Position numbers and translations under genes: made by a program. The notes below the pieces were generated by a model that saw nothing but the letters and a program-made list of their open reading frames with translations, did no database searches and was not told the origin of the DNA. A stretch of 64,000 bases of DNA from Protoeuglena noctilucae (Eukaryota), in contig OY253683.1 of NCBI GenBank assembly GCA_958009085.1, positions 744,001 through 808,000 of the forward strand, written 5' to 3'. Positions 1,388-30,152 of the stretch are shown here, piece after piece; position 1 is the stretch's first letter; each line of letters opens with the position of its first letter.

Positions 1388-4300
1388 CTATCTCGCAAAC
1401 CCCCCCCCCACCGCCGCTGCCGCCGACGGTGACCAGAACTCGTCTTGATCGTTTTCGACTGCCCCGTTTTCGAATTCCTCATCATAGGGCAAGTCGACTT
1501 CGTCTGCACCCCTTTCGCCACCCCACCCCACCACCCCACGGTCGCCCCCACCCCACTCCCCGCCGCCCACACCACCGAACCGCAGCTGCCGCCGCGCGCT
1601 GTCCGGCCGCCCGCCATCGACGCTGTCACCCGCATCGACGCTTTGGTCCATTCTGGCACCCACTCTGGCATCGATTCTGGCGCCGCCCCCGCCGTCGGAA
1701 ACGGCGACGGGGGAGAGGGACCCGAATTCGCCAATGACAACCCTCGGCTCTGTTTCGAATCCAGTATTCCCCGTCTGGGTATCAACCCCACCCCCACCCC
1801 CACCCCCCGCCTGCCTCCTCATCAGCTCTTGCATCACAGCTCCCCGCATTTGCTGCCCCGCGCTCCGCACCGCCGCTGTCATAGCTGCCTGTTCCCGCCC
1901 CACCCTCGCCTTCCGCCATTCTGCAATGTCGTCCTCAGTCACACAAGACCAGCCGAGCACTGCCGGGGGCACTGGGGCAACTGAGGAGGTGGATGAGGCA
2001 TCCAACGCCCCACCGTCGCTGTCATGCTCACTGTTGGCGTCATCCCCACTGCCACCACCCTCACTGCCACCCTCACTGCTATGCTTGCTGCCACCCCCAC
2101 TCCCACCCCCACTGCCACCACCCTCACTGTCACCCTCGCTGTGACCGTCGTTGCTGGCAGCATAGGAGGCGAGGGGTGGAGCTGGGGAGCTCGGGAGGGG
2201 TGGCGAGGGAGCGGGGGAGAGACTGCGGGAGACGAGAGGGCGAGAGAGCGGTGAGTGGGGTAGAGGAATGAGAGAGCTTGTATTGGCAGCAGAGGTGGAC
2301 GCAAGGGGAGGGTTCAAAGGTAAGGGCAGGCCCACCCACATCACCCACCCCACCTGCACCCTCACCCGCACACATCACCCGCACACCAAACACCCCACCC
2401 GCACCCCACTCACCCGAACTCCGTGCCTCCCCACCCCGACATGGGGCTCGCGGGCGGGTGGCTTTCCAGGGTATGCCCCGCCTTCTTAGCCAATACCGAC
2501 CCATCCCACCACAGCACCTCCACGCCCGCCCCGCCCAGCAACCCCAGATCAAACGGCACTCTCTCCAGCAGAGGATGGGCAGAGAGAGACGCGGCGGTGA
2601 GCGGAGAGTCCTCTGACCTCCCCAGCGCCAGTCCCTCTCGTTTCGCGGTCTCCAGGCGTGAGAGCGACCGTGCAGCTGCCACCGCTTCACGCGACCGCTC
2701 CTGCGATGCCCGCCGCAGTTCCGTGGACCTCCGGTGCTCGGCTCTCGCTGCCTCTACCGGGGAAATCGCAGCGTCGGGCGAAGGGAGGGTCCCTGGGGCA
2801 TCGTGGAAGCTCTGTAAGCTATCGCTCTCCACTGCAGGTGCAGCTGCAGCTGCGGTTGGTGTCGATGTTGTCATGTGAGCCCAATCAGGCGACCCCCCTG
2901 CCCCCGCTGCCACACGCGATGGAACCGCATCCCTACCCACCCCAGCCATACGTGCACCCACACCCACACCCACCCCACGCCCCCCACTGCCGCTGGCCCC
3001 ACCCATGCCCGGGCTGCTCCTCTGCGACGCTGGTGCGTCCCAGGAACGAGAGGCGACTGATGTGATAGAGGTGACGGATGAGGGTGTATCTAGCACGCCC
3101 GAGGGTGAGCCCATCACAGCAGCAGCGGCAGTGGCGGGGGGTGAACTGAATGCTGAGGGCTGCGCTGCAGGCCTCGTGGCGTTGGCTAAGCCAGTCTCGT
3201 GGAGAGCTGGCGGAGTGTTGTCGAATGCCTTGGTGGCATTGGATGGCTGCTTGGGCCCAGCGCCACTGCCACCATTAGTGCCACCCCGACTGCCACTGCC
3301 GCCATGAGTGCCACCCCCACTACCGCTGCCGCCCGCACTGCCAATCCCGTTGGCAGCCCGCCCTGCAGCAGCTGCGTATCCGGTCGCCGCACCGCCACCC
3401 CTGTTTGCTGGCACCGAGCCCTGTCTGCCCGTCAATGCATTCCCAGCCACCGCACCCCTTGCTGCTGGCACAGCGCTCTGGTCAGCCCGCTTGGCTGCGT
3501 CCTGCCTAACTGAACCCGCATCTTTCGTGGCTGTAAGGGAGTCCCCCTGCTTCCCAGCCACCTCCCCAGCCTGCACCCGTGTGCCGTCGCCGCCCACCGC
3601 CGTTGCTGCATAAATAGCGTTGCTGCTGGCGACGGTCGGCGATGCAGACGGGCCCGCTTGCGCGCTCGATTGCAGCGATTGCGGCGATGAGCGAGGTTGC
3701 GAGGGAGAGGTGGCGAGGGCAGGTGGGGTTGCAGGGGCGACAGCTGGGGTTGCGGGGGCAGGCGGGGTGGCGGCAGTGACCGGAGGGGTTTGAGAGGCGG
3801 GTGGCGACGTGACAGCCTCGTCCACTCTGCCACTGCCCACCCCAGGCCTCTCCACCCCACTCGCTACCCTAGCCCCAGCCCCGCCACTGCCACTCTCCAT
3901 CCCAGCCCCTCCCCTGCCACTCCCCACCCCCCCGCCACTCTCCGCCCCCCCGCGCCCCCTGAAGCTCCCCCGCCGTCGCCGGAACGACCTCTGAATGACC
4001 GTGGCCGCCAGCGTGTGCAGCTCCTGCAGCGTCTCTCGCTGCAATGCCGACCGGGTCTGGTGGCCGCGAATGTGGCGTTGGATCGTCACGGCTGCGCGGT
4101 GGCGGGTGGCAGCGGCAGAGGCGGCGGCGGCCCTGCGCTGGGATGCCTCTTGCTCCGCTGCTTTCCTCTTAGCAGCTTCCTGCTCAGCTGCCCGTGCCTT
4201 AGCTGCTTCCTCCTCAGCTGTCCGTTGCTGGGCTGCCTCTTGCTCTGCCTTGCGCTGCCTGGCTGCTTCCTGCTCAGCTGCTCTCCTCTTAGCAGCTTCC

Positions 4301-7300
4301 TCCTCAGCTGCTTTCCGCTTAGCTGCTTCCTCCTCAGCCCGTCGCTTTGCCTCCTCTGCCCCTCGTCTCTTAGCAGCTTCCTGCTCTGCAGCTCTTCTCT
4401 TTGCTGCTTCCTCCGCTGCCCGTCGCTGGGCTGCTTCTTCCTCAGCTGCCCTGCGTTGCCTGGCTGCTTCCTCCTCAGCAGCTCTTCTCTTAGCAGCCTC
4501 TGCCGCTGCCCTTTGCCTAACCACCTCTTCCTCAGCTGCCCTTCTCCTTGCCTCCTCAGCTGCTTTGCTCTTAGCAGCTTCCTCAGCAGCCTTTTTCTTA
4601 GCAGCTTCCTGCTCAGCTGCATTCCTTCTTGCCTCCTCCTCAGCCCTTGTCTTAGCAGCCTCTTGCACAGCAGCCCTGCGTTGCCTGGCAGCTTCCTCCT
4701 CAGCTGCTCTGCGCTTGGCAGCCTCATCCACCACCCTTTCCTCCATACCCTCCCCACCCCTCGCCCCCACACCCGCACCCGCACCGGCACCCTCCCCACC
4801 CCCACCCCCACCCGCACCCATCCCCGCCGCATCCGCCGCCTCCCTCGCCCCACTGCTACCCCGGCTGAGGCTCCGATTCCTCTCCAACCACTCCTCTGCG
4901 CTCCTCCGCACCGACTCCATCGCTCGGTCATTTGGACGCGAATGAGGGCCTAACAGGGATGCCGACGGCCCCGCCAGTCGCGACGATAACGATATCGACG
5001 CCGATGCGGGTGATGACACAGATGCGGATCCCGCTGTTGCACCCGCCAGTGCCGGCTCCGGCCATGCCGTTGCTGCTGCCCCCACATTCGACCCTTCACC
5101 CACCCCCACCGCTGCCCCCGCCCCCCCCGGTCCCGCGGGGCTAGTCCCCGAGAAATCGCGGGTCCGAATCTCCGCGGAGTCTCGCTTTTGGGCCGAGGCG
5201 CCCGGGGGTGCGAACCCGGCGGAGGAGGTCGGGGTGGGGCGCGCGGGGAAGTCGAAGCTCTCTCCCCTCCGTGTGCCGTTGCCGAGACGTGCTGTGGGGG
5301 GAGGGGTGGGAATGGAGGGAGTGAGAGTGAGGGAGTGAAGGTGGGGTTGGGGTTGGAGGTGGCAGCGAGGGGGTGGGGTTGGTTGGGAGGGTGGCAGTGG
5401 GGATGGTGCTGCTGGGGGTTGGGAAGGGGTGAGAGAGCCAACAGGATCGGTAGACAGAGGATATGCATACCATCCATTGACACTGTATGGATAAGGGTTC
5501 GAGTCCCGTCTCACCCGCGACCCGGTCCATGTCCGCCGGCACGCTCCCTGACACGGACACCTCTGACGCCTCCGTCTGCATGAAACACGAGAAGGTCGGG
5601 GTCAGCAGAGGTCGTTCACCCTATTTTACTCTACATAACACACTGCCTGTAACTATCAGCCCACACCCTCCCTGCCACAATCACACCCTACCCCACCCCA
5701 CACCACCACCCCCCACCCCTCACCCTTCCCGAAGGCGACCCCTCCCTGCTCCCCCACCCCAGACTCCCCGAAGCATTGCGGAGGCGCGACAACGGCCGCC
5801 CGCGACCCACCCCGTCACTCCCACGCCTCACACCGCCCCCATGCACCCCCCCATCCCCACCCTCACTTGACCCACTCCCGCTCCCACCACGCACCCCCTC
5901 CCCACGCTCCCCACCAGTCAATCCATGCCTCACATGGTCGTACACCCACTCCGCAACCCCCACACCCCCACCGCTGTGCAACGGGTCATGTTGCGGTGTC
6001 ACATGCACCTCTGCCGCCCCCGCCCCCGCCCCCGCCAGCCCTGGGGTAGTATGCGACGGACTTTGCCCCGTCGCCGCTCCCGGGGTTCGAACCGGAGACG
6101 TCTCGGGCATGGCAGGCAACGGGCTCCTTTCCGCTTCCACCCCCGGGGTTCGATCCGGGTACCACTCAGAGGGTGAGTTGTTGTCACCCTCAGCGTCACC
6201 CTCACCCACCCCGTACCGGACCGCTGCCCGCCCCGCCCCCATTCCCCTAGCCTCCGCAGAGCCACTCAACGACGCGCTTGCCGATGCTAACGCCTCCTTT
6301 GGCCCTTGCGACCCCAAGCCTGGCCCAGGCAACCCCTCCCCACGCCCACTGCCACCCGCCACCCCACCCCCACCCTCGCCCCTCCCAACACCACCCTCTC
6401 CCTTCCCATGCCCTGACTCAACGCCAGTGCCAGAGTCCATCCACGTCCGATCCACCGCCACCATATCCCGTAAAGCCGTCGCCACCCTCGCAAGTAACCC
6501 CACCGCCCGCAATCCCCCACCACCACCCGCACCCGCGCCCGCACTCCCACTCGTACCCGCACCCGCACCGTTGCTACCCCCACTCGCCCCCCGCCCGCTC
6601 CCTGCCCCCCCGCTACCCTCCCTGCCATCCCTGCCATCCCGGGCAGCATCGGATGACTCCCTATCCCCACCCACACCCTCGGCCCCCACGTCTTCTTCCA
6701 CCGTTAACAACCGCGAGCTGCCCACCAGCTTCGGCGGAGCACCCAGCCACATCTCACGAGTGAAGTTACCCTCCCCATACGCTACCCCTGTGTGACCGGG
6801 GTGACCGTCGCTCGGGCCACCCCACCCGTCCCCTGCCCCCGCCATCGCCGCACGTCTCGCTTCGATCCCCAGCGATGTCGCCCCTTCCTCGGCCAAGCTG
6901 ATCTCGTGCCCCAGGTCCCACGGATCCGCGGAAGGGGCGTGGGTGGGGTAATGGGCGGCGTGGGGGCGGGGGCTGGCGGGGGCATAAGGCGACGCGGCTG
7001 CGGGGGAGACGAGAGGGGTGGGGGATGGGTGGGTGGTGGTGGTGGTGCTGCTGCTGGTGGTGGTGGTGGTGTGAACAAACGTGGGGTGGATGGGAGCGCA
7101 CGGACAGAGTAGCGAATGGTCAGTGACGTGGGTGAAATCACAGCGTCAATGCCCAAGTCCACGACATGATGACATGACCATTTCATTACCGCATTCATCC
7201 CCAATCTCCCCTCACCTTCCGGCGTGGCGCTGCCGATGTCCCTGTCGATGCCCCTTCCCGCCCCCACACTGCCCCCACCCACGCTCCTCGCACCCACGCT

Positions 7301-21272: not shown

Positions 21273-22619
21273 TCACGCGCTGAACCCCCCCTCACGCGGG
21301 TCGAGGCGCGACAACCGGGTCTTCATCGCCTCAGATCGCGACTTGGCGACGCCGTTGTTCGGGTCCACGGCCAGCGACGCCTGATACGCCTGCAGCGCCG
21401 CGTCCCAATCCTTCCTCGCCTCGTGCGCGTCGCCCAGGTTGTTCCACGCTGCGTGCGAGGACAGGACACGCCTATCGCGAGGGGCCTCACAAGCATATGG
21501 AGGTCCCATCGAGGTTTCGCACCATGTAACAACCGGCCGAGACTTGCTTCGTGGGAAAGGCTTCCCAAAGGCTTCCAGGCTTCCCACTCACCGACCGTGT
21601 ACCCCGGGGAGAGCTCCACTGCCCTCTTGTACTCCTCGATGGCCTCCTTGTACCGTTGGAGGCTGAAGAAGGCGAATCCCAAGGCGTTGTGCGCCTGGGC
21701 CAGACCCACGTCGTCCCCCTCCCAGGTCTTCACTGCCTTCTGGATGTTCTTGATCCCCTGCACATCGAAGCACGATGACTCCAAAGTCAAGCCTAGCAAG
21801 ACCGTCGGCGCGCCCTACGCGCTCGCGCTTCCAGCACTGCAGGCCTGCAAGCAAGGTCGGCCTTGCCTGGGTGAAGAGCCGCTTGCGCATGAGGATGGAC
21901 CCGAGCTCGTAGTAGTCCTCGTACGTCGCCTCCCCCGTCCTCACGCGCTCCCCCAGCTGCTTGGAAGACTCGTCCAACTCTCGCCGGACCAACACCTGAC
22001 GGACCTGCTTGGAAGCACGGCACGGGGCGGAGACGTCAGCACAGCAGGAGGGAATGCAACACGCCATTCTCAGCATTACAGAGATGCAAAGCGATGACCC
22101 GGCAAGCGCGGCGGGGCGGCCTCGCGCGAGCTTTCCATGCTCCTACCGCAGCTGAGGAAACAGCAGGCGCCTCACCGCAAAGTAGGCGCCGACGGACAGC
22201 ATCCCGAGCAGCGAGGTGAGGTAGATGAGCTGAGCGGGGGTATCGAGACCCTCAGCGAGGTCCATGATGGGCGACACGCCGGGCAGCTGCGGGAGAGGAG
22301 CGGGAGGGAAACACTGGACCGCCAGGGCCACGAGAACGTCGCAGCAGGCGTGCCTCACATGCGATAGACAGGGATTGACAATGTCGACAGGATGAGAGCA
22401 TGCGGGGCTCCGAACAACGAGGATCGCGCGACCAGGCCATGGATCGCGCCCGGGCGTTGTCCTCACCGCCTGCCGCGCGACGGCGCGCTGAGACGCTGCC
22501 GCCCTCTCGGCCACACGCATGACGCGACAGGAGACCGTCGCCGTCCCCGCGGCGGACAGCCGCTGCCCCGGCCTCACGGCCGGGAGCATGGAAATTGCCC
22601 CGCACGACACGCACGCCAT
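21273..22619 (-). CDS. CGL71: Thylakoid TPR protein for photosystem I assembly (Ycf37/PYG7/CGL71)
   Basis: Transit peptide, TM helix IYLTSLLGMLSVGAYFA, VRQVLVRRELD, YYELGSILMRKRLF, LAQAHNALGFAFF, PGYTVAWNNLGDAHE. Confidence 0.9.
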
Positions 22620-22941
22620 CTCCTCGCGCAGAAGATGTCACGGGCCTTGGCAAGCCTGTCGAAAGCGACTACAACCTGCAGAGCCCGGCGCGCCGCCGCG
22701 TCGACTGCCGCAGGGGACGCTGCTCGTGGAACGGTGCGAGCGAACGAGAGCCTGGATCCCAGAGACCGCGCAACGGAGAGATGGTGACCGAGGCAGACTC
22801 ATGACGCAGTACTGGTGTCCGCGCGACGCCCGCACCCAGCTCAGGCGCCGACGCCAGCCAGCTTGCGCTGTCGGAAACGCGTCATGCTTTGCCGCGAGCC
22901 CATCCTCGCCGCTCCTGCGCCTGTCCTTGCACTCCCGCATC

Positions 22942-23595
22942 ATGTCCGCCGTCGTGTTCCTGACTGGCGTCCTCGGCTGCGGCAAGAGCAGCGTGGTGGC
23001 CTGCCTGCACACCGGCCTTTTGCCGTCCTTTATTTTCCTCGAGGGCGACGCCTTCCATCCGCCCGGCAACCAGGCCAAGCTCTCCCGAGGCGAGCCTCTG
23101 ACGGACGAAGACCGGGAGCCGTGGCTGCGGGACATCGCCGCGGCGTGCGCCCCGCATCGCCTGTGTCTCGTGACCTGCTCCGCACTGGTGCGCTGCTGCC
23201 GGTCGATCGAGCCACGCCGGTGCGCGGAAGACAACTCCTTGGCTTTCATATTCTTGTTACTCCATCCTGCGTCCCAGAAGCGGAGCTACCGGGCGCTGCT
23301 GGCTTGCGAGACGCCCCACAAGCGCAAAGTCTTCGTCTATCTGCGCGTCGCGGACGTCTCCAGGCATCGCACGGCCGTCCAATCGCGCGTTCATTTCGTA
23401 AACCCGAGCCTGCTGGACTCGCAGTTCGCGACGCTCGAGGAGCCGGCGACCGGGGAGGGGCCGTACGACGTGGTTGTCGTGCCGACCCACGCCCCGCGAG
23501 ACCAGGCCAGTTCCGCTACCCCCGAAGACGCCGTGCGCATAACGGCAGAACAGGTCTTCGATCGCCTCGTCGCACTCGGCGTCCCGCTCGCGTGA
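22942..23595 (+). CDS. IDNK: Gluconokinase (GntK/IdnK family); intron 23188-23277
   Basis: P-loop GVLGCGKS, EGDAFHP, GEPLTDEDREPWL, CSAL|KRSYR, HFVNPSLLDSQFATLEEP. Confidence 0.93.
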   Translation: MSAVVFLTGVLGCGKSSVVACLHTGLLPSFIFLEGDAFHPPGNQAKLSRGEPLTDEDREPWLRDIAAACAPHRLCLVTCSALVRCCRSIEPRRCAEDNSLAFIFLLLHPASQKRSYRALLACETPHKRKVFVYLRVADVSRHRTAVQSRVHFVNPSLLDSQFATLEEPATGEGPYDVVVVPTHAPRDQASSATPEDAVRITAEQVFDRLVALGVPLA

Positions 23596-23601
23596 AGGGC
23601 C

Positions 23602-25515
23602 ATGTGGGCCGTCCGTCGGCGTCGGGCGCTCAATGTTGGTCACGCCTGTGGCAGGCTCTGCGGGGAAGGCGGCACGAACAGTGTGTGGGGCATCGCGGAT
23701 TGCCCATCCGAGTCGTGGTGGGCGGCGGGGTGCAGTGCGGGCGCCGGTGGGGACGGAGGGTGTGTGCAGGACGCTTCGGGTGGCGAGAGGGGCTGGCAAA
23801 GATCGGGGCAGGGGTGGGGTGTGCAAGGATGGGCAGAGCAGGGTTCTTGTGTGGTGGAGAGGGCAGGTCGGGGTGTGTGGTATGGGTTGGCGAGGGGGTG
23901 GAGGGTGGGGGATGCGTGGGGATTGAGAGCGAAGTGGGCATGGGAGGGCCTTGGGTGTGGGTCAGGGAGTCGTGATGAGAGAAGATGGGGGCCCCGCGGG
24001 GATGTGCGGCGATCAGATGGTCGCATCAGCCGGGGCTGGAGCAGCGGGGCGGGTGACAGGGGCGGTGCTGCGGGTGGCAGAGACGACGGTGTGGGTGAGA
24101 GACGAGGCGGTGGGGTGGGCGACGGGGGCGGTGCTGCGAGTGGTGAAAGCACATCAAATGGCGCGGGTTCGAGTGGAGATGCCACACACGCCAACTACGG
24201 TGCCGTCCCGTGGCTGTTCAAGGCGACGCCCCAAGCACTCCACCCATACTGGCACCTCATGCGCCTAGACAAGGTGAGAGCGAGAGGGTCGTGTGGGCAG
24301 CACAGTGTGGCTAGCATAGCCACGCGCTCAACCCTTACCTGCACCCCCACTGGCACCCTCTTCACCCCGACCCATCGCCCCCCACCCTCGCCCGCAGCCC
24401 ACGGGCACGTGGCTCCTGGCCTGGCCCTGCATGTGGTCCATCACCCTGGCATGCCCTCCTGGCCAGATCCCAGACTTTGGCATGATGGCGCTGTTCGGTG
24501 CTGGGGCGGTGCTGCTGAGGGGAGCGGGGTGCACCGTCAACGACCTGTGGGACAGGTTAGTGGTAAAGTGCATGTGGAGTTGGATGTGAGGTACATCCAA
24601 GGCAAATGAGCTCGCCACGTGACCCACCATCCACCACCCACTCACTCCACTCACCTACTACCCTCATATCACAACCTGTTCCCCTTCCGCTCCACTTCCC
24701 CCAGGGACCTTGACCGCCGCGTCTCCCGCACCCGCACCCGCCCCCTCGCCTCCGGCGCCGTCTCGCCCCTCCAAGCCACCGCCTTCCTGGGCGCCCAGCT
24801 CCTCTCTGGCCTCGTTATTCTCCTCCAACTCAACCCCTTCAGCCAGGCACTGGGCGCCTCCTCTCTCCTACTCGTGTGCACCTATCCCTTTATGAAAAGG
24901 GTTACATGGTGGCCCCAGGCGTTCCTAGGATTGACGATCAACTGGGGAGCGCTCCTCGGCTGGGCCGCGGTCGACGGATCGCTGCATCTCCCGGCCACGC
25001 TGCCCCTGTATGTTTCTGGCGCTTGCTGGACGCTGGCGTATGACACGATCTACGCCCACCAGGACAAGAGGGATGACGAGGAGGTGGGGATTAAGTCAAC
25101 AGCAAGGAGGTGAGGAGATGGGTGGGGGTGATAATGGATTTTCTCTCAGTTAATCAATTCCACCCCCCCTTTCCCTCACCTCACCCCCACACCTTCTCAC
25201 CCCCTCACCCCTCAACACCCCGCTCCTTTCCTCCCCCCCCACAGATTTGGCGCCAACACCAAGCCCTGGCTGTCACTCTTCGCAGCAGGTAGCGCTTTGG
25301 GGCTGACCATGGCGGGCGCGGGTGCGGATGCCGGCGTGCTCTACTATGGCGGCGTGGCGCTGGGCACAGCACATTTGGCGTGGCAGATAGCCACGGTCGA
25401 TTTGGACGATCCGCGCGATTGCATGGCCAAGTTTGCGTCGAACAGAGATTACGGGGCGATCGTGTTTGCGGGGGCGTTGGGGGACAGGCTGGTCGCGGCT
25501 GCTTGGGGGGGATGA
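23602..25515 (+). CDS. COQ2: 4-hydroxybenzoate polyprenyltransferase (UbiA family, mitochondrial)
   Basis: [82 protein letters not shown]. The only in-frame ATG before the core is at 23602. Confidence 0.95.
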
Positions 25516-27152
25516 CAGGGCGGTCTATGGGTGTGGAGGGGTGGTTACAGTTGGGAAGAGATACATTGCGATGGGATGGTGGGGGGTGGTGGAGGGGTGG
25601 GTGGAGGGGGGGGCGGTGGTGCGGGGATAGATAGATGGGGGTGGGTGTCGAGTGCTGTCATGGCAGAGTGCCTCTTGCTTGGCTAACTCACGTGTCATCC
25701 TTAGTGAGCGTTGGCTCCACTGCCGTGCTTACTGACAACAGTCGCGTGTCTGTTCAAACGTGGCGCAAGGGTGCGCGTATGACACAGCGTGTATGAAACA
25801 CTCTCACACGTGGGGTTGCCCCGGGGGCCTTACCCACTACAGCAGTAAGGGTGCGCCCATGTGAGCTCATGTGAGCTAAGTGCGTGTGCGCCCACTGGAG
25901 CTTAGTGGGTGTGCTGATATGCAAGCAAGCAAGGCGGGCGTGGCGACATGACTAAGGACTAAGCGCGCCCGGTCGGCCCTCTCAAGGGGCCTAGGAAAAG
26001 CCACAAACGAAAGCAATGACCCGTCTCTCGCCATCTCTATCCACTTGCGCTGCACTGCGCCCCTCCGGCCGCCGCCACTGCCGCCGCCACTACCGCGAGC
26101 GTGCTGGCGGGATGCCGGTGCGTGAGCGGGCACTGCCGGAAGCATAGAGGCGATAAGAAGGCGCGCATGCATGCATGCAGGATGCGGGTGTGTGCAGGTG
26201 GCATGTCGGCTGTGTAAGGGCCGTGCCAACGTGCAGCGCATGCACACCAACCCATTGCACTCTCGGGCGGCTCAGCGGCAGCGAAATGGAGCCTGCGGGA
26301 AGGCAGCGGCTGCGGCGGGCGCGGCGCTTGCTGCTGTGCTGCGTGGTGCGGGGCAGCGTCAGCCCCTTGTCAGCTCAGCCCCTTAGTGTTGAGCCCCTCA
26401 GTGTTGGGAGGGACCACAGGGACCACATGTTCACAACAACCACAGAGGTCAGCTCGAGGGTGCAAAGCACAGAGCCCTGTTGTGTTGTCAAGGGCCGCAG
26501 GGGCAGCTCTCAGGGATGGCAGGGAGCGCGCTCGCTGCAAGGCGCAAGACGGGCTGTGACGAGGCGCGGTGTCTTGGCCAAGCGCGCTGGGTGTCATGGG
26601 TAAGGACGGGGCACAGGCGGGGCCGAGGGGCAGCGGTAACGGAGGTGGCGGGGGCAGGGTGGGATGGGATGCGGATGGTTGAGGGAACGAGAAAGCGAGA
26701 GAGGCGAGGCGGCGCCCGGACTGGCGGGGCTGTGCGCCCGGGGCTATGTGGGGGCTGGGCTGCAGGGTGCGAGGTGCAGGCGGGAGGCTGCATGCCCAAG
26801 CGCGGTGCAGGGTGTGAGGTGCAGGCAGTGCAGTGCTGCGCGCTGCACGCGGTGCGAGGTGCATGGGGAATGATGCACGGTGCACGGCGCGCACGCTGCA
26901 GGCTGTATGGTGCACGCTGCATAGTGCGCGCTGCTGCACATGCTGCCGGCTGCTTGCTGCGCCTCCCCCAAGGGACCCACACGGCGCCCGGAACGAAAAC
27001 GAAACGAAAAAGTAAAGGTAAAGGGAGGCGGGACGGAGAGGGGCGGGTGACGCCGCCGGGACTGCGCGCGCGTGCCCCAGGCTTTGTGCTGCGGCGGGGT
27101 GGCGCATCGTGCTGTGACAGGGCGCCCGCCGGATTGCATCGTGTTGTGCCCG

Positions 27153-30152
27153 TCATTGCGGCCCGTACTCCCCGCTGTACTCGTACGAGCTGCACACGAG
27201 CTGCGGGGGCGCAGAGGGACAACGACGGTCGCCAACAGAGATCACCCAACAGAGAAGCCGACACAGCGGCGCTCAACAAGCAAGCCAAAGACCACACACC
27301 ATCATACATACGTATACCTACCACATCCCTCCTCGGACACGATTCGATCCTCCACCCATCCACCCGCCCCGCACCCTCACCTGCGCGTTCCCGGCGCTGC
27401 CCTCCGGTGACTGCGTTGCCCCTCCCGTGGACCCACCGCCCCCCGCCACGCACGTCGCGCCGTTGGACTGCCCGCTGCCCGACGCGGCCCCCGGGTTCCT
27501 CGCCAGCAGCGCCTTCAGCAACGCGATTGTGTCCTGCAAGACCACGTGCTTGGCCCTCTTGTCTTGGCCCCCGCACACCTGGTCAGGCCCGGGTGGCACA
27601 AGCACCCTCAGCTCATTGAGCAGCCGGTTGATGCGGTCTCTCCGGGCCTTCTCCATTTGCGGGTGGTACAGCTTGTCGCCCGCCTGTGCCGTGACGCCCG
27701 CTGCCAACGAGTCGCGGCGCGGGCGGCTGGCGGAGGCGACGGTGGGGCGGCCACCGCGGCGCACGCCGCCCTGGGAGAGGGGTGGGGTAAGGGAGTGGTG
27801 AGTGTTGGGAGTGGGGTTGGGAGTGCAGTGTGGTACAAGGTGCACGCCGCCCTGGGAAGGGTGGGGTGGGGTATGGGGGGTGGTGAGTGTTCGGAGTGGG
27901 GTTGGAGGGGTGTTAGAGTGGGGTAGGGGTGGTGTTGGAAGTGAGGTTGGGAGGTGGGAGTGTTGCACAAGTGCTGTTGACTGCATCAAATGCAAAGCAT
28001 CACCTTGGCCTTGACAGCGTTGCTGTTGGATGCGACAACCAAGCAGTACTAAACCAAAGCATAACAAAGCGTCATCACCTCGGCCTTGACGGCGATGGTG
28101 CTACCTAAATGCGACATCCCTCATCCCCTGTGTCACCTTGGCCTTGACGGCGTTGCTGTTGGACGCCCCCGCGCTCTGGGGGCTGGGTGCCGCGAACGCC
28201 GCCCCGACCCCGCCCCTCACTGTCTCCTCGTGAAAGCTCGAGGCGAAGGGGTGGGTTAACGCGGAGGGCAAGTCCACGGGACTGCGTATGGGGGGGGTGA
28301 GGGGAGCTTCATAAGGAAGGGACTGGGCGGGCGTGGTGGTGGTGGCAGTGGTGGTCGTGGTGGGTGGCGTAAGGTAGCAAGGGTGCGGGTGGGGTGGGGG
28401 CAGTAAAAGCCACCAGCATGCATCATTCGTCGGCAAGTGTGTAAGCAAGCAAGTCAGCAAGTGTGTAAGCAAGTCATAAAGCAAGTGACCCCACGCATCG
28501 CATCTCACTTGTCGTGGGCGCTGTGGCGAGCGGAGGCCTGCCCCCCGGCTGGCACGGACAGGGCGTGGTGGAGGGGGTGCGCGGGGCCTGGCGGGTGGAG
28601 GTGCGCGTGCACGTTGGGTAAGGCGATGCGCATGGTGGGCTTGATCGATTGGCCGAGGGACATCGTGCTAACGGAAGGGCCCAGGAGGGAGCCTCCGTGC
28701 ACGGTGCCGGCGCGCGCGCGGGCATGGTCCTCGAATGACGCCCGGAAGCCTGCAGAAAACGTGATGTGCGATGATATCGTGATCGTACCGTGACGAGATC
28801 GTGACACGTGACGTGGGCTGGCGCAGCGGCGCGTGGGCTGCTGGTGCGGGTATAAATGGGGTCGCGAGGTCGCGGTGAATACGCGGTGGTTGCGGCGAGC
28901 GGCAGAGGGGGCGCGGGGCAGCAATGCACCGGCGCAGAGAGCGCTGGGAGTGTGTCGGAGTGCGCGCATGTCGCCCACTTGCCTGAGTTGTCGTGGCCGT
29001 AGAGGGCTTGGAACGCGAGCCCCGCGCCGTGGTAGGTCTTTGAAGGGCCGTGGACGGAGCTGCCGACCTCGTTGTGCGCCACGCTGCCCGTGAAGGTGGG
29101 CGCGGCCAGGGCGCCCGTGTCCCCCGACGCGGCGGGCGCCGCGGAGGGGCCGGGGTCGTGGAGCTCGGACGACAGGAACTCTTGCAGGATCTGGATCTCG
29201 CTCTCGGGGATCAAGTCGTGGTCCAGCACGCAGTCGTCCAGGGGAGAGCTCTCCTCGCCGTGATGCCGCGTCTGCGGGGGTCCAAAGCCACCGGATTCTC
29301 GCGCGATGCGTCATATCCGCATCAAAACAAGCGGGGAGCTCGCCGCACGCGCGCTGTGCGCGTCATCGGGGCGGGGGAAACCGGCGAGGGAGCCGGCGAA
29401 CCCGTTAGGGCCGCAGGGACGCAAAGGGGGCCCGAGAAGGGGAAAAAGGAGCTAGATATCGATGTGAATGATAACATGGAGGGCCAGGCGAGCAAAAATA
29501 TCGCCACCCCGGCCCGCACGGGCCTGCCAAGATGCCGCGGCAGGTAGCACGCTTCCAGGAGCCGCGAATGCGCGGCGCGGGCATCCCTCCAAGCCATTGG
29601 CGTCATGTGCAAAGTCTGACCGCGCCGCGAGGCCTGGTGCGCAGGCCGCCGGGCGGCAAAACGCAGGCGGTCAGGCCGGTCACATGGGTCCCCCCGTCGG
29701 GCGGAGGCCTCGCGGGGCACCTCCAACGATTTGAGCACTCGTGTTGCGCAAGAGGGGGCTCGTAAGGAACCCCAGCGCGCTCGCTAGCCCCGCCGGGATG
29801 ACGGCTGCTGGAGCCAGGTCCCCCGCCCGCAGACGCGCGGGCAGAGGGCTCGCTGGGGGCAGGACGCCGTCGGAAACGAGACAAACCACCTCGCGGCAGG
29901 CTCCAGCGCGCCAGTGCCGCCGGCTGGGCGCCGAACGGGGCTCCCGCCCTGCCGTCGCCCAGCCGGGGCCGCCCGCAGCAAATGGCGTGGCATGGCCTGC
30001 GCCCGGCCCAAGCATTTGACGCATAGCACGCGGGGAGGCCTTCCCAGTACGTGATTCCTCACCCGTAAAAACTCTGCGATAGGATCGTCCCCTGCCTCCA
30101 GGCGCCCGACGAAGCCGCACTCGCTGAGGTCCATCGGCGCCTCGAGCAACAT
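27153..30152 (-). CDS. bHLH transcription factor
   Basis: YHPQMEKARRDRINRLLNELRVLVP...KRAKHVVLQDTIALLKAL at about 27500-27670. The last exon is LVCSSYEYSGEYGPQ*. The first exon is uncertain (ATG 29366 or 30152, both with phase-0 donors). Confidence 0.8.

Follow-up and report, generated by a model that had tools for sequence, protein, structure and literature searches.

We investigated how two adjacent genes are expressed on a stretch of 64,000 nucleotides (nt) from Protoeuglena noctilucae, probably a marine green alga (assembly GCA_958009085.1, contig OY253683.1, positions 744,001 to 808,000 of the forward strand). This whole stretch is referred to as the window and positions are counted from its first letter. 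The upstream open reading frame (ORF1) encodes a predicted gluconokinase, the downstream one (ORF2) a predicted COQ2, and the two lie on one strand without overlap, each with its own start and stop codon and only 6 nt between them. We consider it probable that both are read from a single bicistronic mRNA, on which COQ2 would be reached by leaky scanning as in green algae. Nuclear bicistronic and polycistronic mRNAs read in this way are documented for green algae (PMC7896298 and PMC11892635, in their accessible parts, to which all statements on published bicistrons in this text refer), in agreement with what an earlier, sequence-only reading of this DNA had assumed.

The sequence-only reading had placed the ORF1 stop codon TGA at 23593-95, followed by AGGGCC and the COQ2 ATG at 23602, and these coordinates proved exact. 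To follow the locus on the RNA level we used assembled contigs from four metatranscriptome runs (X1-X4) of one study, which give no strand, ends or expression levels. An X1 contig at 23306-23673 (368 nt, 0 differences) bridges the stop/ATG junction unspliced, extending over 288 nt towards ORF1 and 72 nt towards COQ2: RNA with the 3' part of ORF1 continues into COQ2 and keeps the stop codon. The ORF1 intron is removed in RNA, as a further X1 contig ends at 23187 and then carries 14 letters equal to 23278-23291, and the three introns of the COQ2 coding sequence (CDS) of 501 codons are confirmed by RNA joints. X1 does not look DNA-contaminated here, because its 6 contigs on the stretch, each at least 99% alike, skip every intron met, six in all in the neighboring gene and COQ2, and because the intergenic region 22798-22945 is bare. 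The X3 RNA covers 23768-24064 but also intron sequence at 24638-24702 and may represent pre-mRNA or DNA. A 13-letter loose end before 22961 in X3 showed no match in the window (up to 2 mismatches) beyond chance and was dropped. The earlier claim of a bicistronic mRNA thus stands for the arrangement of the ORFs and for RNA over the stop/ATG junction, while the single mRNA over both ORFs is what we infer.

The second line of evidence is the distribution of start codons. ATGs on the + strand near the locus are located at 22781, 22801, 22884, 22942, 23602, 23633 and onward. This corresponds to 3 ATGs in the 161 nt before the ATG-free zone, none over the 659 nt of the zone itself and 23 in the 1345 nt of COQ2 coding sequence, with a density of 12-22 per kb in the COQ2 exons; the limits of the zone are exactly the ORF1 start and the ORF2 start. 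The spliced ORF1, given as roughly 560 nt by the sequence-only reading, measures 564 nt and indeed contains no ATG after its start. When the sequence 22943-23601 was shuffled 3000 times with dinucleotides preserved, a mean of 4.25 ATGs was obtained and P(0) was 0.002. With the codon order of the already methionine-free CDS shuffled 20000 times, out-of-frame ATGs averaged 2.85 and P(0) was 0.029.

We compared ORF1 with a set of 273 homologues, consisting of 119 and 149 proteins listed from two kinase searches and 5 cluster members, with the window's own three versions excluded. All 273 possess internal methionines (Met), the mode being 3-5. The three family Met positions, whose replacement had been noticed before, read T8, L47 and V153 in ORF1 (unspliced numbering), where Met is found in 249/273, 257/273 and 220/272 homologues, respectively. 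Of the 46 columns with at least 80% conservation ORF1 retains 42, among them Walker A and the LLDSQFATLEEP block; the 4 columns lost comprise 3 Met columns. At a conservation of at least 90%, 34 of 36 columns are retained and both losses are again Met columns, so that constraint on ORF1 appears to be normal apart from the positions that a Met codon would occupy. This agrees with the selective loss of AUGs proposed from the sequence before. Judged from these alignments AUG loss in ORF1 appears selective, the comparison of Met columns being the strong part of the evidence and gap length alone a weak one. The first lost Met is codon 8, only 21 nt past the ORF1 start, and therefore the scanned lane would begin at the ORF1 AUG and not within ORF1.

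On exon 3 of ORF2 alone PF01040 scored 136.3 bits (gathering score 34.2) and TIGR01474 188.2 bits, with all other models at 88.8 bits or less; exons were scanned singly, the whole-protein cut-off of TIGR01474 being 275.45. Among the matches listed, the best named ones for exon 3, with 70-75% identity, belong to Viridiplantae, i.e. green and streptophyte algae and land plants; neither a closer relative nor an rRNA marker turned up that would place the host more exactly. By these matches ORF2 is assigned to COQ2, the 4-hydroxybenzoate polyprenyltransferase branch of UbiA. Between 23596 and the GT donor that follows 24273 the frame has no stop and, apart from 23602, a single in-frame ATG at 24259. 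This ATG is too late as a COQ2 start since it lies inside the conserved W...PY..L.RLDKP motif, which bears out the statement of the sequence-only reading that 23602 is the only usable in-frame ATG. The COQ2 start is accordingly predicted at 23602, barring an unseen intron or a non-AUG start. The first 21 residues contain 5 Arg and no acidic residue; this N-terminus looks presequence-like, suggesting mitochondrial targeting. Algal COQ2 homologues likewise have long and variable N-termini.

COQ2 exon 1 further contains a G-rich stretch of about 440 nt at 23700-24140 (+) with about 52% G, encoding a Gly/Trp/Arg-rich low-complexity linker whose 176 residues include 51 Gly and 13 Trp. Two G-quadruplex-type motifs (23884-23921 and 23936-23967) and a 21-nt imperfect tandem repeat (24049-24142) are located in this stretch. 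GC values at the three codon positions (GC1/2/3) are 0.69/0.75/0.66 here and codon periodicity is not clear. Since the other two + frames hold just 2 and 5 stops, the open frame across the G-rich part is weak evidence by itself. The X1 contigs break on either side of this stretch. Among the pieces listed X1 has no contig on 23674-24133, a hole that proves nothing in a sequence of 52% G and at low depth; likewise X2 has no contig on ORF1 among its pieces, and its depth is low as well, so that this hole proves nothing either.

The locus could be expressed as follows. One transcription unit would start in the region of at most 144 nt shared with a divergent TPR gene, with the ATG at 22884 probably lying upstream of the transcription start. 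Some 40S subunits would initiate at 22942 and give rise to a cytosolic GntK/IdnK-type gluconokinase of 187 amino acids (aa). Others would bypass 22942, meet no AUG for 659 nt (569 nt when spliced) and initiate at 23602, yielding a 501-aa COQ2 with an Arg-rich N-terminus. Selection for bypass would have stripped ORF1 of all Met codons and out-of-frame AUGs, including the three family Met positions. A coupling of gluconate salvage to ubiquinone synthesis, as suggested by the sequence-only reading, was not supported: the pair is neither linked nor fused anywhere else searched.

The same reading had also argued that the spacer leaves no room for a promoter or a poly(A) site. Overlapping transcripts are nevertheless compatible with such a spacer. 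The two genes could be transcribed into two overlapping monocistronic mRNAs, with the kinase 3' untranslated region (UTR) running into COQ2 exon 1 and the COQ2 TSS (transcription start site) located in or just upstream of ORF1. The contig 23306-23673 could equally well belong to the 3' UTR of the kinase or to the 5' leader of COQ2, and AUG-poor 5' UTRs are also found in monocistronic algal genes according to the published sources. The poly(A) motif TGTAA is absent from the + strand between 22000 and 26213, which is uninformative here because it is also absent after the COQ2 stop. However, the AUG-free zone and the lost Mets reach back to codon 8 of ORF1, and therefore a COQ2 leader would start at or before the ORF1 start, making the mRNA bicistronic anyway. 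With a TSS past 23602, on the other hand, the conserved motif would have no in-frame AUG ahead of it, and the out-of-frame AUGs at 24158 and 24179 would precede the one at 24259. We consider overlapping mRNAs unlikely, though they are the most serious competitor of a bicistronic mRNA with leaky scanning.

A bicistronic mRNA could also yield COQ2 mainly by termination at the ORF1 stop codon and reinitiation, for which a distance of just 6 nt between stop and start seems well suited. Mutational tests in green algae favor leaky scanning over reinitiation, although some reinitiation is not fully discounted there (PMC11892635). The efficiency of reinitiation drops with the length of an upstream ORF (uORF) and is best after few codons (PMC11892635), whereas ORF1 with its 187 codons is long. 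Furthermore, reinitiation needs no AUG-free ORF1, so that the selective loss of Met codons and AUGs would be left unexplained. As the main route to COQ2 reinitiation therefore appears improbable.

ORF1, the 6-nt spacer and ORF2 are all in the same frame, which the 90-nt ORF1 intron preserves. UGA read-through, or an unseen splice event removing the stop, could thus produce a gluconokinase-Arg-Ala-COQ2 fusion as a significant product. The sequence-only reading was right that read-through is possible in a shared frame; nothing in our analysis speaks for it. The stop is retained in the junction RNA contig, and TGA functions as a stop in this organism, since COQ2 also terminates with it. Among the best 150 of 4407 kinase matches none was as long as a fusion would be, the longest having 440 aa; PF01040 was absent from all 5 longer kinase relatives and a kinase domain from the 120 COQ2 relatives listed. 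A shared frame has a chance of 1 in 3, and a fusion would bury the presequence-like N-terminus of COQ2. A fusion as a significant product is hence very improbable, and we give just as little credit to the idea that the shared frame is no accident and that occasional UGA read-through adds the fusion as a third product. If read-through did occur, one AUG-free and Met-free enzyme gene would combine three roles: it would be a coding sequence, a lane for scanning ribosomes and, optionally, the N-terminal domain of a membrane enzyme.

The assignment of ORF1 is based on a match to TIGR01313 with E=1.2e-32 and 112.9 bits, 0.85 bits under the cut-off of 113.75, obtained with a query that still contained the 30-aa insert encoded by the intron. 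The intron falls between profile positions 81 and 82, with the insertion located at CSAL|KR. The P-loop GxxGxGKS is present and ORF1 is classified as a putative GntK/IdnK-type gluconokinase. Because of the TIGR01313 match even with the insert, and because GC3 is 0.82-0.86 and thus coding-like, ORF1 still looks like a working kinase. A decaying gluconokinase relic serving as an untranslated or irrelevant leader of COQ2 would fit the low identity of 42-55% to the closest relatives among the matches listed (the best named one being a fungal gluconokinase), the Pfam kinase models, for which ORF1 stayed below threshold, and the slightly insufficient TIGR01313 score; given a frame intact over 187 codons, a spliced intron, the retention of conserved columns described above, the codon periodicity and an A at -3 of the ORF1 AUG, we regard such a relic as highly unlikely.

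Upstream of ORF1 the mRNA of the divergent neighbor has its 5' end at about 22796/22797, where contigs of two runs stop (22797 and 22796); the distance to the ORF1 start codon is no more than 145 nt. Without an overlap of the transcripts, the ORF1 leader can therefore not exceed about 144 nt. The neighbor and ORF1 would share a very compact bidirectional promoter. Judged by eye from its translation, the N-terminus of the divergent TPR protein is transit-peptide-like. If the in-frame ATG at 22801 were used, the kinase would be longer by 47 Arg/Ser/Ala-rich, targeting-peptide-like residues. A prokaryote-style gene call uses this ATG (P0003, 264 aa), at a site that lies 4 nt from the neighbor's mRNA end and has no RNA contig. 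The out-of-frame ATG at 22884 opens an ORF of 333 codons that runs over the COQ2 start. Downstream of the pair, around 230 nt past the COQ2 stop, three runs show one end of an RNA contig at about 25743 (25743, 25745 and 25758); in X1 this contig measures 2.7 kb at a depth of 45. The transcript at this position is separate from COQ2 and more deeply covered. The window DNA is GC-rich (about 0.55-0.72) and eukaryotic with GT..AG introns. All features of the locus are compiled in the table.

Table. Features of the gluconokinase-COQ2 locus and its surroundings (window positions; X1-X4, metatranscriptome runs)
Feature	Position	Strand	Description
ORF1 (predicted gluconokinase) exon 1	22942..23187	+	start ATG 22942-44; Walker A GVLGCGKS; TIGR01313 profile 3-81; RNA contigs 22946-23187 (X1), 22976-23147 (X4)
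ORF1 intron	23188..23277	+	90 nt, GT..AG, in frame, without stop or ATG; RNA splice evidence; 30 residues align as insertion
ORF1 exon 2	23278..23595	+	TGA 23593-95; TIGR01313 profile 82-153; RNA contig 23306-23673
Inter-ORF spacer AGGGCC	23596..23601	+	2 codons, frame common to both ORFs
COQ2 exon 1	23602..24273	+	ATG 23602-04; Arg-rich presequence-like start, G/W/R-rich stretch ~23700-24140, then W...PY..L.RLDK motif; RNA contigs 23306-23673 (X1), 23768-24064 (X3), 24134-24271 (X1), 24140-24271 (X2)
COQ2 intron 1	24274..24397	+	GT..AG; RNA joint 24271/24396 (cut +2) in X1, X2
COQ2 exon 2	24398..24555	+	bounded by RNA joints
COQ2 intron 2	24556..24704	+	GT..AG; RNA joint 24552/24702 (cut +3) in X1, X2
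COQ2 exon 3	24705..25109	+	UbiA domain core; PF01040 136.3 bits; TIGR01474 188.2 bits, profile 67-199
COQ2 intron 3	25110..25244	+	GT..AG; RNA joint 25107/25243 (cut +2) in X1
COQ2 exon 4	25245..25515	+	TGA 25513-25515; TIGR01474 profile 201-279
Putative shared promoter region and ORF1 leader	22798..22941	+	at most 144 nt; holds in-frame ATG 22801 and out-of-frame ATG 22884; without RNA contig
Divergent neighbor, 5' exons	21592..22797	-	TPR-type protein; RNA contigs X1, X2 skip CT..AC introns 21757-21865, 22003-22173, 22287-22466

Several observations weigh against a bicistronic mRNA read by leaky scanning. On the RNA level, a single contig over both whole ORFs was not found among the pieces listed for X1-X4, and even a contig across two genes is no proof of one transcript. 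If the leader included the ATG at 22884, this ATG would compete with both starts. The ORF1 start carries A at -3 and T at +4, the ORF2 start G at -3 and T at +4; ORF1 is thus not obviously the weaker one. With 564 nt ORF1 also exceeds the refined green-algal medians of 357 and 291 nt. In addition, two ATG-free gaps on the + strand of the window are longer than that of ORF1. The longest one, at 4143-4942, is explained by composition (P=0.09), but the second gap at 26940-27631 (691 nt) is as improbable as that of ORF1, with 6.3 ATGs expected and none of 3000 shuffles at zero. No translational reason appears for this second gap, which seems to lie in a gene on the other strand, and gap length alone is for this reason weak evidence. 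As to the Met columns, 2 of the 273 homologues lack Met at all three of them (P0141 from Sanchytrium tribonematis, and P0262), the homologue of Elliptochloris bilobata (P0137) has G and L at the first two, keeping its other Mets, and a Haematococcus homologue has A at the first with the other Mets kept. Part of the Met loss may therefore represent a lineage trait or drift. Finally, the pairing of the two genes is without comparative support, its absence elsewhere being weakly founded as the genomes of close relatives lay outside the comparison.

Independently of the locus, P0137, P0262 and P0141 are of interest as eukaryotic gluconokinases that lack two or all three of the conserved Mets. The longest gap, 4143-4942, is CT-rich, highly repetitive with GCTGCTTCCTC-type units and ATG-free on both strands, and its minus strand probably encodes a Glu/Ala/Lys-rich repeat. 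Opposite the gap at 26940-27631, which is located within a 2.7-kb RNA contig, the minus strand carries an ORF containing a bHLH-like segment (27318-27986).

We also looked for the gene pair in other organisms and in the literature. In a tblastn search of metagenomes none of 80 loci with a COQ2/UbiA relative (53-72% identity) had a gluconokinase nearby. Two of these 80 loci were inspected: one (L002) looks bacterial, the other (L001) is intron-less and eukaryote-like with a divergent unrelated gene upstream. For Haematococcus lacustris the two proteins are recorded on separate contigs of 655,729 and 299,382 nt. The gluconokinase-COQ2 pair looks lineage-specific. It is not named in the accessible text or in the 7 supplementary files each of PMC7896298 and PMC11892635, whose tables may list loci by identifier only. 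Full-text literature searches for gluconokinase with bicistronic gave bacterial papers only, and those for COQ2 with bicistronic and algae gave none. The mechanism and this class of bicistrons are known, and the gene pair is new to them.

The known picture of algal polycistrons is not changed by the locus. If confirmed, it would illustrate the leaky-scanning rule for algal bicistrons with unusual clarity in a natural gene pair and would add to the known cases a marine green alga that has no close sequenced relatives in the libraries searched. A full-size conserved enzyme would then have lost every methionine past its start, including three that are kept by more than 80-94% of its relatives, and a translation mechanism would have shaped a protein sequence. 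A rule of thumb for finding such loci from sequence alone is to look for Met-free ORFs that end just a few bases ahead of the first AUG of the next gene.

In viral bicistrons that use termination-reinitiation or read-through, the stop and the next start lie within few nt of each other and frames can be shared, as is the case here. An AUG-free upstream ORF is not required in these systems. An element promoting reinitiation was not found at our locus, nor was one searched for. Control of monocistronic genes by uORFs or leaders resembles the locus in having an upstream ORF on the same RNA and an AUG-poor leader. It differs in that ORF1 is a conserved 187-aa enzyme by its TIGR01313 match and not a short regulatory peptide.

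Green-algal bicistrons are the closest counterpart. In Auxenochlorella protothecoides they show short inter-ORF distances with a median of 40 nt and a depletion of AUGs in ORF 1 with a median observed/expected ratio of 0; short 5' UTRs, an ORF 1 shorter than ORF 2 and weaker ORF 1 start contexts are further characteristics of the published sets (PMC11892635). The P. noctilucae locus deviates from them in its spacer of 6 nt, well under the reported medians of 183 and 40 nt, in having as ORF1 a full-size enzyme of 187 codons without any AUG after its start, in a start context that is not clearly weak, and in being known from sequence and RNA contigs. Like the bicistrons of Chlamydomonas reinhardtii, Chromochloris zofingiensis and A. 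protothecoides, it consists of two complete ORFs on one strand with a very short inter-ORF distance. It also shares with them an ORF1 shorter than ORF2, the depletion of AUGs before ORF2, a possibly short 5' UTR and a GC-rich genome.

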